DNA of 64,000 bases from sequence record OP688485; one strand, written 5' to 3'. Position numbers and translations under genes: made by a program. Shown here piece after piece: positions 55,664 through 57,404 of the stretch. Each line of letters starts with the position of its first letter. Positions within the stretch are counted from its first letter, which is position 1. Source of the stretch: Escherichia phage EP_H11. Below the pieces are notes generated by a model, which did no database searches, was not told the origin of the DNA, and saw only the letters and a program-made list of their open reading frames with translations.

Positions 55664-56043
55664 TGTCACATATGACCCGAGAAGAAATCGTATTGATGGT
55701 GGCTAAGGTGTGTCATGAAGCTAATCGTGCATACTGCCACTCTATCGGAGACTTCACCCAGTTAAGCTGGGAAGCAACATCCGATGAAATTAAACAGTCG
55801 GCTATTGATGGAGCGTATAACTGTCTGCACAATAACCGCATCAGTCCAGAAGAATCCCACGAATTCTGGGTTAAAACTAAGAAGGAGCAAGGCTGGAAGT
55901 ATGGGGAAATCAAGGATCTCGCAGCTAAGACGCACCCGTGTATGGTTCCATATTCACGGTTGCCGGAAGAGCACCGAGTCAAAGATCACCTCTTCACCAG
56001 CATCTGCGCAGCATTCATTAAACAGTATAAAAGGGCATCATGA
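55663..56043 (+). CDS. hypothetical protein
   Basis: ORF only. Confidence 0.5.
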
Positions 56044-56510
56044 TGACCGTAGTTCAAGTAAAGAAAACTATTAACTGGGACGACTCTCTGGAGTTACCAA
56101 AATACGCTAAAGCTGGTGATGCTGGTCTTGATCTTCGTGCGATGATTAAGACTGACGAAATCGATAAAATCACTGTAAATCCTGGCGAAACTATCCTGGT
56201 CCCTACCGGTCTGGCGATCAACATCGGCGATCCGAACATCGCTTCTGTGATTCTTCCCCGCAGCGGTCTCGGCCATAAAAATGGCATCGTACTGGGTAAC
56301 CTGGTTGGCCTTATCGACTCCGGCTATCAGGGCGAACTGATGGTGTCTGTGTGGAACCGTAGTAACGAATCTTTCGTTATTAATCACGGCGACCGCATCG
56401 CACAAATGGTGTTTCTTCCAGTTATTCAACCAGAGTTCCAGCTCGTGGATAAATTCTCTGATGTATCTGAACGTGGCGACGGTGGGTTTGGCCATTCCGG
56501 GATTAAGTAA
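56040..56510 (+). CDS. dut: dUTP diphosphatase (dUTPase)
   Basis: Near-colinear with E. coli Dut: [67 protein letters not shown]. Confidence 0.9.
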
Positions 56511-56541
56511 TCCTAGGGTAGCTAGACTACGGTAATTACTA

Positions 56542-56575
56542 TTGACCTCTTTACGGAGAGGTCAATGTTATTCTA
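56542..56575 (+). terminator. terminator-like hairpin
   Basis: ttgacctct-ttacgg-agaggtcaa followed by tgttattct; downstream of dut. Confidence 0.4.
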
Positions 56576-56592
56576 CCATAGAGCAGAGGAAT

Positions 56593-56781
56593 ATGATGGA
56601 TATTGAACAGCTAACTAAGGGTCTTAATAGCAACCAGATTACTGTTATTCGTTCGGAGCATTTAGCTCCTAAGACTATGGTCGTATCTGATGATATCTGG
56701 GAAACACTTCAGAACCATAATAACGTTAGCGTAGAATCTGCAGATGAAGAGTCTGTGAAGAATATGCTGGAGCATCCGTAA
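56593..56781 (+). CDS. hypothetical protein
   Basis: Trimmed to the ATG at 56593 downstream of a terminator-like hairpin. Confidence 0.4.
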   Translation: MMDIEQLTKGLNSNQITVIRSEHLAPKTMVVSDDIWETLQNHNNVSVESADEESVKNMLEHP

Positions 56782-57404
56782 TGATCCTTGGTAAATCTTA
56801 TATCGAGCAAGCTATTACCCAGGGATTGTGGACCTATCATAGTTATCTGGATGGTCAAGAGCCAAGAATAGGACAGAATAGCGTAGATGTACGCTTAGCT
56901 CCATTCTTCCTGGTTCCTCAGAAAATGCCCGACAATCACGTAGTGGATCCCTACAGACCATGTACTCTTCCAGAGTATCGTGAAGTAGAGGCATTATACT
57001 ACGACCTTAAGCCTGGTGAGTTCGTCTTAGGCTCGGCATCAGAACGTATCGATTGTACTACTATGTTGCCTGAGAAGTGGTTCGAGCATTACGACCCCCG
57101 TTACCGTAATAGCTCAGTAGACCATGGTGTGGCATTCTGTCAGCACTACGATGGTCGTAGCACTATGGCACGTTTAGGTATCCTGTCACATGTTAGCGCA
57201 GGTTACGGAGATTACGGCTTTAAAGGAGCATTCACTCTGGAAATTGTTAACCTAAGCCCTAATACCATACGTCTACGCTCTAATATGAGAATAGGACAAA
57301 TCTATTTCACTGAGATAGCTGGTGGAGGTTATGACTTCTACAAAGGTTATGACCAAACTGATTTTAAACCAGTAGCTCCTATTATAGGAAGAGACAGATT
57401 TTGA
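56781..57404 (+). CDS. dcd: dCTP deaminase-family protein
   Basis: GRSTMARLGILSHV resembles the dCTP deaminase GRSSLARLGL core. Confidence 0.6.
   Translation: MILGKSYIEQAITQGLWTYHSYLDGQEPRIGQNSVDVRLAPFFLVPQKMPDNHVVDPYRPCTLPEYREVEALYYDLKPGEFVLGSASERIDCTTMLPEKWFEHYDPRYRNSSVDHGVAFCQHYDGRSTMARLGILSHVSAGYGDYGFKGAFTLEIVNLSPNTIRLRSNMRIGQIYFTEIAGGGYDFYKGYDQTDFKPVAPIIGRDRF

Follow-up and report, generated by a model that had tools for sequence, protein, structure and literature searches.

What a dUTPase gene (dut) and a dCTP deaminase-family gene (dcd), flanking one small gene, contribute to the nucleotide metabolism of a coliphage is the question raised by a locus of Escherichia phage EP_H11. The locus lies in a stretch of 64,000 nucleotides (sequence record OP688485), which was analysed as a whole and is called the window here. 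The original prediction had combined the pair with a ThyA-family enzyme, a P-loop kinase and a YfbR-like 5'-deoxynucleotidase at 13483-15958 into a route from dCTP over dUTP and dUMP to 5-hydroxymethyl-dUMP (5-hm-dUMP), with a T4-like route from dCTP to hydroxymethyl-dCMP as the alternative. With a probability of about 80 % we regard the pair as the dUMP-supply and deoxyuridine (dU)-hygiene branch of a pre-replicative pathway to 5-hm-dUTP, by which thymine would be replaced in the phage DNA. Those steps that are established are so at the level of sequence or fold only, the others being proposed.

The window is part of an IME392-like coliphage, because it shares high nucleotide identity and the gene order with Escherichia phage vB_EcoM_IME392 (MH719082, 116 kb). 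This phage is the single close relative in the phage collection (megablast of both regions), with 95 % identity over 12400-16000 and 92 % over 55600-58100. Nearly all window genes up to about 59.4 kb are located on the + strand. IME392 and EP_H11 have been placed in an 'SP15-like / RP13-like' phage group together with YerA41, Carin-5, SP-15 and RP13. In the available part of Sieskind et al. (2025; PMC12686479), which lists phages with YerA41-like polymerases, the dCTP deaminase (AXY86133) and the thymidylate synthase homologue (AXY86077) of IME392 appear in Table 1 as 5-hm-dUMP biosynthesis genes. The accessible text of a preprint (bioRxiv 10.1101/2025.03.26.645540) assigns a dCTP deaminase, a dUTPase and a thymidylate synthase homologue to all members of the group, takes IME392 and EP_H11 to be T-modified on the ground that they carry aGPT-Pplase1 along with these three genes, and reports that 5-hydroxymethyluracil DNA kinase (5-HMUDK) was not detected in IME392. 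Thymine replacement is already inferred in print for IME392 and is not new, and the novelty of this part is low because the phage of the published inference is 95 % identical to the window. Active-site residues, the kinase fold, the homologue of the T4 beta-glucosyltransferase (BGT), the transporter and the variable island discussed below are not treated in those parts of the two sources that are accessible.

The product of dut (156 aa) aligns over residues 17-154 with the E. coli Dut in the PDB, the five motifs being complete with the Asp of 'GLIDS' for catalysis and the C-terminal RGxGGFGHSG arm, and matches the PHROG dUTPase family (PHROG 135) at 3e-59. Hydrolysis specific for dUTP is predicted. 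The Dut of IME392 is 99.4 % identical (one residue differs). In motif 3 (56303-56332) a Gly replaces Asp92 of E. coli (GLIDSDYQGQ in E. coli), and the equivalent of Asp90 is retained. The deaminase (DCD, 207 aa) reaches 84.5 bits with Pfam PF22769 (gathering cutoff 27) and 1.9e-25 with the PHROG dCTP deaminase family. Its residues S127, R131 and E154, which are invariant in the phage subfamily, align with S111, R115 and E138 of Dcd from the E. coli K-12 genome, and E154 is matched by the Gln of a mutant M. jannaschii structure (E145Q, PDB). Both enzymes of the original prediction are thus borne out, the clear Dut homologue as a five-motif trimeric dUTPase at exactly the predicted position on the + strand and the dCTP deaminase-family gene at 56781-57404 with catalytic Ser, Arg and Glu intact. 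The E-values for the pair, like those for the companion genes at 13483-15958, lie well outside what chance would give. Accordingly conserved in these residues, DCD is predicted to deaminate dCTP.

The DCD subfamily is characterised by a C-terminal Y-x-G-Y-D-Q-T-D...G-x-x-R-F motif and an internal insertion. Full-length relatives in the phage collection were found only in IME392, Ab1-TPeters (45 %), Carin-5 (41 %) and YerA41/GN1 (39 %). In YerA41 and Carin-5 about 70-75 % of the thymidines are replaced by oligosaccharide- and phosphate-bearing derivatives according to mass spectrometry (PMC12686479). Because the relatives of DCD are confined to these few phages while those of Dut lie nearest to the host and to N4-like phages, DCD appears to be the lineage-specific member of the pair and Dut a generic, probably host-derived addition. 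This division raises the possibility that DCD is a bifunctional dCTP deaminase:dUTPase whose direct product is dUMP, like the enzymes of M. jannaschii and M. tuberculosis, Dut having been acquired later from a host to mop up other dUTP. The subfamily profile scores better against the bifunctional enzymes of M. tuberculosis (1.3e-19) and M. jannaschii (1.8e-16) than against E. coli Dcd (1.7e-10). In addition, the residues before the conserved Asp read A-G-Y-G-D, like A-G-F/W-I-D of the bifunctional enzymes and unlike A-H-R-I-D of E. coli Dcd, and the DCD of YerA41 is annotated as a trimeric dUTPase. No Dut was found within about 4 kb on either side of DCD in Ab1-TPeters, Carin-5 and YerA41, a scan that covers these flanks only; the accessible preprint text gives a dUTPase to all members of the group (bioRxiv 10.1101/2025.03.26.645540). 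A similarity ranking, moreover, is no functional test. All in all, bifunctionality is a serious possibility that falls a little short of even odds. The determinants of mono- versus bifunctional DCD enzymes were reportedly described by Johansson and colleagues in 2005. Whether DCD is mono- or bifunctional, the pair is predicted to deliver dUMP and to keep dUTP low.

This dUMP would be consumed by the ThyA homologue. In agreement with its original assignment, the protein belongs to the ThyA family of Pfam (2e-11) and to the PHROG thymidylate synthase family (6e-71), and its residues Cys163, Arg183, Ser184 and Asp186, invariant in the alignment, correspond to C146, R166, S167 and D169 of E. coli. 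However, the best match in the PDB is the CMP hydroxymethylase MilA (3e-15), whereas any thymidylate synthase (TS) reaches 4.5e-6 or worse. Inspection of the active site, proposed earlier as a check, revealed Asp160 three residues ahead of the catalytic Cys (D160-M-I-C163), Asn195, and no Asp in the specificity loop. An Asp at this Cys-3 position belongs to the hydroxymethylase signature proposed with the structure of the T4 dCMP hydroxymethylase, TS enzymes having a Leu there, and the exchange D145N abolishes hydroxymethylation by the T4 enzyme (PMC6400193). The Asp is present in all nine extracted phage homologues and T4 gp42, named as those of IME392, the metagenomic contigs L011, L012 and L013, Ab1-TPeters, RP13, an Ackermannviridae phage, M6 (gp58) and T4 gp42 itself, while E. 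coli ThyA carries the Leu.

The base that is recognised can be judged from the specificity loop. Asp179 of T4 gp42 specifies cytosine (PMC6400193), and the base-recognition position is an Asp in MilA and an Asn in thymidylate synthases (N177 in E. coli). The window protein reads N193-V194-N195, and N195, matched by HMMER to both the Asn of TS and the Asp of MilA, is invariant across the family with no acidic residue nearby; the nine phage homologues compared likewise lack an Asp in this loop. A MAFFT alignment puts Asp179 of T4 gp42 one column off from N195; the register of N195 hinges on a one-residue loop insertion, the lack of an Asp in the loop does not. Beyond IME392 the closest phage homologues are those of Ab1-TPeters (46 %), Ackermannviridae (40-45 %, one record being annotated as deoxyuridylate hydroxymethyltransferase), and RP13 (33 %). 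Identity to M6 gp58 is 33 %. Bases derived from 5-hydroxymethyluracil (hmU) are experimentally established in ViI-type and M6 phages (PMC5889632, PMC8989533). From these residues and relatives we conclude that the ThyA homologue is a putative dUMP hydroxymethylase and neither a plain thymidylate synthase nor a dCMP enzyme.

Two other explanations of the pair have to be weighed at this point. Dut and DCD could do no more than raise the dUMP supply of an ordinary thymidylate synthase of the phage, with normal thymine in the virion DNA. Both genes are common in phages with canonical DNA, for instance Dut in N4-like phages and DCD beside thymidylate synthase in haloarchaeal viruses, and databases do label the ThyA homologue as thymidylate synthase. 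But the residue at Cys-3 is the Asp and not the Leu of TS, and a solved hydroxymethylase is much closer than any TS. Compared with E. coli ThyA the protein also has about 90 additional residues, and for its C-terminal third no alignment was obtained to the C-terminal TS tail that seals the folate site. Since, furthermore, the gene is flanked by a marker of thymidine hypermodification, by a kinase of its own and by an HD hydrolase, and T hypermodification has been measured in relatives, this housekeeping function is improbable. The second explanation is the T4-like cytosine route, in which the ThyA homologue would hydroxymethylate dCMP and a BGT-like enzyme would glucosylate 5-hydroxymethylcytosine (hmC). 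A homologue of the T4 beta-glucosyltransferase does exist in the cluster and the hydroxymethylase Asp is common to the ThyA homologue and T4 gp42, yet the N-V-N loop with its invariant Asn195 has no acidic residue at or beside the position of T4 Asp179 and the MilA Asp, and a DCD in which the catalytic Glu is intact would use up the dCTP/dCMP precursor instead of providing it. No MazG-type dCTPase was found among the window ORFs scanned, the gp160-type gene described below and the closest homologues of the hydroxymethylase are those of hmU phages, and mass spectrometry of YerA41 and Carin-5 DNA shows T and not C to be modified (PMC12686479). The cytosine route, offered as the alternative in the original prediction, fails on the missing loop Asp and the intact DCD and is very improbable.

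The surroundings of the hydroxymethylase gene fit a dUMP-derived product. The gene at 12422-13393, not flagged before, reaches 121.8 bits with PF18723 (cutoff 25) over its full length, and BLASTP relates it to gp160 of ViI (1.3e-26) and to M6 gp55 (8e-6), with a tblastn match to Vi01_130c (orf00160). By orf number and accession order Vi01_130c was taken to be gp160, which Lee et al. (2018) call 'aG/PT-PPlase1'. Table 3 of that paper, as far as accessible, includes in the aG/PT-PPlase1 class the C-terminal domain fused to the hmU DNA kinase of SP10 (Lee et al. 2018). On this homology the gene is a marker of thymidine-hypermodifying phages; the accessible literature on thymidine hypermodification assigns no biochemical role to aGPT-Pplase1. 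A function as 5-HMUDK, suggested by the Pfam name 'HMUDK_hel', was rejected, the name referring to the helical aGPT-Pplase1/gp160-type domain that SP10 fuses to its kinase.

The P-loop kinase, correctly described in the original prediction, starts at ATG 13483, and its ORF, which ends at 14205, overlaps the start of the hydroxymethylase gene at 14202; the two are translationally coupled. A confident structural model resembles nucleotide kinases of the dNK/TMPK/NadR-RNK-like fold. The protein has few relatives anywhere: in a word-indexed database the kinase, the BGT-like protein and the protein encoded at 10261-11295 gave 2-6 matches each, and an exhaustive search was needed for the BGT-like protein. 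No tblastn match to the kinase at E 1e-3 was obtained in Ackermannviridae or M6-like phages. Because of the few relatives and the lack of homology to the 5-HMUDK M6 gp54 beyond the P-loop, a function as 5-hm-dUMP kinase is favoured on the modelled fold, and the protein may also be a divergent 5-HMUDK.

The HD-domain protein following the hydroxymethylase matches PF12917 with 54.4 bits (cutoff 25.9) and PHROG 7076 at 5.9e-19. In the PDB its matches are DatZ (2e-5) and YfbR (0.02), and the H...HD...D metal site is kept, 'SEHS' and 'VHDIPEIFTGD' aligning to both. Of the earlier designation as YfbR-like 5'-deoxynucleotidase the HD family holds, whereas the score for the NCBIfam 5'-deoxynucleotidase, 27 against a cutoff of 122, lies well below the threshold and the substrate can be suggested by analogy only. 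The HD gene follows the hydroxymethylase also in Ab1-TPeters, L011 and L013, as does M6 gp59 after gp58; in RP13 it adjoins the kinase instead. Because of this fixed position and the analogy to DatZ, which excludes dATP, removal of dTTP or dTMP is suggested. The whole module of kinase, hydroxymethylase, HD protein, primase, helicase and family A DNA polymerase (PolA) is kept in Ab1-TPeters and, in rearranged order, in RP13. The same module occurs in the metagenomic contigs, L012 lacking the HD gene.

Avoidance of dU seems to be important for this phage since it belongs to a group with UDG-fused polymerases (UDG, uracil-DNA glycosylase), where a low dUTP level would matter. The window PolA is 98 % identical to that of IME392 and 30-33 % identical over about 1000 aa to those of RP13 and Ab1-TPeters. 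According to the accessible preprint text, IME392 PolA falls into the group whose polymerases carry a fused active UDG, and in this SP15-like group Pol X and a ligase co-occur and repair dU together with the polymerase (bioRxiv 10.1101/2025.03.26.645540). Pol X and an NAD-dependent ligase are encoded in the window and are proposed to be partners in the repair of misincorporated dU. Inspection by eye of the N-terminal 150 or so residues of the window PolA (18909-19400) revealed UDG-like motifs with altered residues ('VIIGD...APPF...AG', 'MHHAQ'), a pattern common to L011, L013 and RP13 that fits the UDG-fused SP15-like polymerases. Incorporation of hm-dU is described in the literature for the polymerases of YerA41 and phiLo, and by analogy the window PolA is expected to accept hm-dUTP.

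These observations bear on one more explanation, a uracil-DNA phage in the manner of PBS2 or AR9, for which DCD would raise dUTP for the direct incorporation of dU instead of dT. Phages of the AR9/PBS2 type encode split multisubunit RNA polymerase beta-prime homologues, and the same is seen in the window, where 26582-28096 and 29676-31244 match domains 3-5 and 1-2 of the largest RNA polymerase subunit, Rpb1, which suggests a split, phage-encoded multisubunit RNA polymerase. The fully intact dUTPase near DCD, a polymerase family described with fused active UDG alongside Pol X and ligase for dU repair, and a hydroxymethylase and a kinase that would consume dUMP render a genome of this kind scarcely credible.

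The proposed replacement of thymine by an hmU derivative can be formulated in seven steps. DCD, with its catalytic residues in place, would deaminate dCTP, and Dut, possibly together with DCD, would convert dUTP to dUMP and PPi and so keep dUTP off the polymerase. The ThyA homologue would then hydroxymethylate dUMP with methylene-tetrahydrofolate. The coupled protein with the nucleotide kinase fold is presumed to yield hm-dUDP, from which the host Ndk would form hm-dUTP. By analogy and conserved position the DatZ/YfbR-like HD hydrolase would strip dTTP or dTMP, and the SP15-like PolA would incorporate hm-dU. Finally the upstream island, with the gp160-type aGPT-Pplase1, the BGT-like glycosyltransferase (GT), the PIG-L protein and others, may modify hmU after replication, glycosylation being the likeliest reaction. 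Rather than hmU itself, the final base is probably a derivative that has been modified further, possibly by glycosylation. The originally proposed route from dCTP over dUTP and dUMP to 5-hm-dUMP is thus supported, as far as sequence can tell, by the hydroxymethylase signature, the relatives, the gp160-type marker and the DCD subfamily.

Several points weigh against this reading. The pair is 40 kb away from the hydroxymethylase cluster. Dut alone is non-diagnostic of thymine replacement because it is of a generic gamma-proteobacterial type, its nearest relatives being the Dut of enterobacterial hosts (67 %) and N4-like phages (55-60 %). DCD stays below the trusted cutoff of the NCBIfam equivalog TIGR02274 (82.7 vs 92.8 bits), contains an insertion of about 30 aa and belongs to a divergent subfamily. 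Ser94 of the T4 signature, two residues before Tyr96, is Gly106 in the ThyA homologue, with the Tyr kept as Tyr108; the uracil-type phage homologues all carry Gly or Ala at this position, and the Ser/Tyr part of the signature was defined on dCMP enzymes (Ser94/Tyr96 of the T4 enzyme). A recognisable 5-HMUDK was not found in the window, the similarity of the kinase to M6 gp54 amounting to 0.003 in BLASTP and to 62 % in hhalign over 44 P-loop columns only. Furthermore, base composition was measured for YerA41, Carin-5 and SP-15, whereas the window phage and IME392 are known from their genes alone. While YerA41, RP13 and Carin-5 resisted sequencing, a complete genome of IME392 was deposited; modification in the window phage and IME392 may therefore be partial or less bulky.

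The proposed pathway shares its main elements with those of the hmU phages SPO1/SP8/phi-e, PhiW-14, SP10, ViI, M6 and SH-Ab 15599, namely a ThyA-family dUMP hydroxymethylase, a deaminase supplying dUMP, a deoxynucleoside monophosphate (dNMP) kinase, hydrolases removing dTTP or dTMP and a phage polymerase that incorporates hm-dU. The general pre-replicative pathway is established for the SPO1-type phages, PhiW-14, ViI, M6 and SH-Ab 15599. As in the window, the HD hydrolase of M6 comes directly after the hydroxymethylase. The window differs in the supply of dUMP, which would proceed at the triphosphate level by dCTP deaminase and trimeric Dut, whereas it depends on dCMP deaminase in M6, SH-Ab 15599 and phages of the SPO1 type. 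Its candidate for dTTP removal is an HD enzyme, while a dimeric MazG-like dTTPase/dUTPase was shown in SH-Ab 15599, and neither a 5-HMUDK nor an aGPT-Pplase2 (amino acid:DNA transferase) is recognisable in the window. The hmC system of T4, consisting of gp56 dCTPase, gp42, gp1 kinase and alpha/beta-glucosyltransferases, is alike in the Asp at Cys-3, the dedicated kinase, the exclusion of the canonical nucleotide and a BGT-family glycosyltransferase. It differs in Asp179 of gp42, where the window has Asn, and in a dCTPase instead of a deaminase acting on dCTP, and because of these two differences the target base of the window is held to be uracil-derived. DatZ, the HD dATP triphosphohydrolase by which cyanophage S-2L excludes A from its Z-genome, is the closest solved relative of the HD protein; the two have the HD...HD...D core in common, the likeness being limited to about 65 residues, and for a DatZ-like removal of a canonical nucleotide the substrate here would be a thymidine nucleotide. 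The features on which the argument rests, and those of the neighbourhood, are compiled in Table 1.

Table 1 Features of the window, with position, strand and the main evidence for each
Feature	Position	Strand	Evidence
Class I S-adenosylmethionine (SAM)-methyltransferase-like protein	6420..7160	+	Methyltransf_25, _31, _23, 3e-5 to 2e-4
Unknown protein accompanying the BCCT gene	7262..8170	+	303-aa ORF upstream of BCCT in L013, 71 % identity
BCCT-family (betaine/carnitine/choline-type) transporter	8174..9556	+	Pfam BCCT 1.6e-91
PIG-L/LmbE-family de-N-acetylase	9643..10254	+	Pfam PIG-L 3.4e-14
Conserved island protein, possible GT-A glycosyltransferase	10261..11295	+	N-terminal 'VAFIIPTYHR', 'VDDD'
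T4 BGT-like (GT63-type) DNA glycosyltransferase candidate	11343..12422	+	Family profile vs T4 BGT
aGPT-Pplase clade 1 / HMUDK_hel protein, ViI gp160 homologue	12422..13393	+	Pfam HMUDK_hel 4.4e-35
P-loop kinase, probable 5-hm-dUMP (dNMP) kinase	13483..14205	+	AAA_28 2e-9
ThyA-family dUMP hydroxymethylase (predicted)	14202..15275	+	Asp160 at Cys-3, Asn195, MilA best PDB match
HD-domain phosphohydrolase, YfbR/DatZ clade	15359..15958	+	Pfam YfbR-like 1.6e-14
Family A DNA polymerase, SP15-like (UDG-fused) group	18909..22208	+	Pfam DNA_pol_A 6e-32
Pol X and NAD-dependent DNA ligase	37272..40053	+	DNA_pol_B_thumb 5e-20, HHH_8; DNA_ligase_aden 8e-20
dut, trimeric dUTPase (dUTP to dUMP + PPi)	56040..56510	+	Pfam dUTPase 2.4e-35, E. 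coli Dut 1.1e-54
12-bp stem-loop just after the dut stop	56540..56567	+	Terminator-like scan and RNA fold
Small ORF, 62 aa, coupled to dcd	56593..56781	+	GAGGA ahead of ATG 56593
dcd, dCTP-deaminase family (dCTP to dUTP, or to dUMP if bifunctional)	56781..57404	+	Pfam DCD 1.1e-23

The dut start overlaps the stop of an upstream ORF (ATGA) that encodes a RyR-domain protein (55663-56043). The stem-loop behind dut (-21.3 kcal/mol, z -4.8, none of 200 shuffles being as stable) is a candidate terminator, attenuator or RNA processing site. The small gene predicted between the pair proved to be real, as it is conserved in IME392 with 82 % aa identity, where it is unannotated. Its start is likely ATG 56593 and not TTG 56542, because GAGGA precedes the former and the latter falls within the hairpin. 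Its stop overlaps the dcd start (TAATG), and the two ORFs are translationally coupled. The small ORF has a weak match to PHROG 23599 only, and a relation to the ORFs upstream of dcd in YerA41 and Carin-5 was ruled out since homology was not found. Relative to IME392 the window carries a 660-bp insertion directly after dcd (57389-58047), exactly at its 3' end, with an ORF (57401-58051) for a Cys-rich protein of 216 aa. The C-terminus of this protein, 'WYLVSMGDQLKYGITSNLPRRLHQL', resembles by eye a GIY-YIG nuclease motif, no match in the family libraries being obtained; it is probably a free-standing homing endonuclease.

Between the topoisomerase genes (gyrA) and the gp160-like gene lies an island of six genes (6420-12422). 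Its last member, the BGT-like protein, shows a marginal Pfam match alone, and exhaustive search of a representative library yielded 262 homologues. A profile of 45 sequences of this family finds T4 BGT over its full length at 5.8e-9 in hmmsearch, and hhalign gives 96.3 % with E 2e-9 over 285 columns. The family-invariant residues D90, R168, R171, R275 and E278 align with D100, R191, R195, R269 and E272 of BGT, which we take to be the catalytic base and the UDP ligands. A distant member (P0016) follows directly on a ParB_N gene at 7392-10188 of the 102-kb viral contig L015 (JGI 3300026159), where no TET/JBP match is on record for the neighbouring ORFs. Some phage T-dioxygenases, which generate hmU in DNA, have been described with ParB partners (PMC13229309, PNAS 2026), which hints at a wider link of this glycosyltransferase family to hmU.

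The remaining island genes were compared with their counterparts in L011 (1392-8984), L012 (383-4955) and L013 (1956-11080). The PIG-L gene, with a weak match to BshB1, is kept in all three, as are homologues and paralogues of the gene at 10261-11295 and the BGT-like gene; L011 and L013 also retain the gp160-like gene. The protein of 10261-11295, whose AF2 model is poor (pLDDT 46), is a possible GT-A glycosyltransferase on motifs alone. The BCCT transporter reaches 8e-72 with the NCBIfam glycine-betaine BCCT, which is below the cutoff. Among genuine phage genomes in the collection it is found in IME392 only, and also in the metagenomic relative L013; by record sizes and names the other matches appear to be host or mis-binned contigs. 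It always adjoins the ORF 7262-8170, in L013 too, and a transporter in a DNA-modification island is unusual. This ORF has no match in Pfam, PHROG, NCBIfam or the PDB, and its L013 counterpart none in Pfam. Its identity as ATP-grasp ligase, considered for the motifs 'HGGKGAG' and 'ETNFR', was discarded, hhalign giving 0.1 % against the ATP-grasp proteins of related islands and the PDB profile search being empty. The methyltransferase-like protein at 6420-7160 shows Pfam matches that are all below the gathering cutoff, and weak matches to UbiG and BchM. No credible homologue was found in L011 or L012 (one match of 77 residues, E 0.006) and L013 has a different block at this place; among the loci examined only the window/IME392 version of the island has the gene. 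In the relatives the place of the distal genes is taken by a pyruvoyl-type (phosphatidylserine-decarboxylase-like) decarboxylase, a ligase of the ATP-grasp family and a CxxCxxCC protein, BCCT being present in some and absent in others.

From its gene content the island looks like a modular cassette for post-replicative tailoring, the chemistry of which would most simply start with the glycosylation of hmU in DNA, which agrees with YerA41 and Carin-5, whose modifications are rich in sugar. Provided that hmU in DNA is the substrate of the BGT-like enzyme, a glycosyl-hmU of the base J type would be formed first. In contrast to the window, the hmU of base J in kinetoplastids arises by oxidation of T in DNA (JBP), and the glucosyltransferase that makes base J is not known to be related to that of T4. 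Tentatively, and at less than even odds, we propose that the virion DNA of the window phage and IME392 contains a glycosylated and further tailored hmU with a base-J-like core, undescribed so far. In that case the enzyme of the T4-BGT family would glycosylate hmU in DNA, the PIG-L enzyme would de-N-acetylate the sugar, the second glycosyltransferase-like protein and the methyltransferase would add further groups, and the BCCT transporter would import one building block. The island would be a swappable cassette, in which relatives exchange the methyltransferase for the pyruvoyl-decarboxylase and ATP-grasp genes, and a family of different sugar decorations would be built on one conserved hm-dUTP core.

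Some other genes of the window may be mentioned. A second glycosylation-type cluster of five genes (41609-45002) includes DUF7217 (1e-78), PHROG 'alpha-2,3-sialyltransferase' / MptE-like, PHROG 2111, a GT1-like protein (PHROG 2518, 2e-98) and a PHROG 1962 glycosyltransferase. In addition, an Acb1-like anti-CBASS protein (32054-32560, weak, 2.9e-6), a PinA-like peptidase inhibitor (40582-41001, 3.6e-9), a NADAR domain (53010-53669, 7e-27) and DUF4326 (55071-55400, 3e-17) were found.

The pre-replicative part of the pathway is textbook knowledge and was already inferred for IME392. What is added here is the support for the hydroxymethylase at the level of residues, a DCD subfamily that is apparently lineage-specific and possibly dUMP-forming, a picture of dU avoidance made up of Dut, UDG-fused PolA, Pol X and ligase, and the indication of a modular island for hypermodification of the sugar type, unstudied so far, in an E. 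coli phage that is easy to grow. Replacement of thymine by a bulky hmU derivative shields phage DNA from restriction enzymes and probably from other nucleases, and neither standard sequencing nor PCR works on such DNA. As the pathway can be seen from the sequence, users of this coliphage group, in phage therapy as well as in cloning, should expect resistant DNA that is hard to amplify. Of remaining interest are the nature of the final base and the unusual island.

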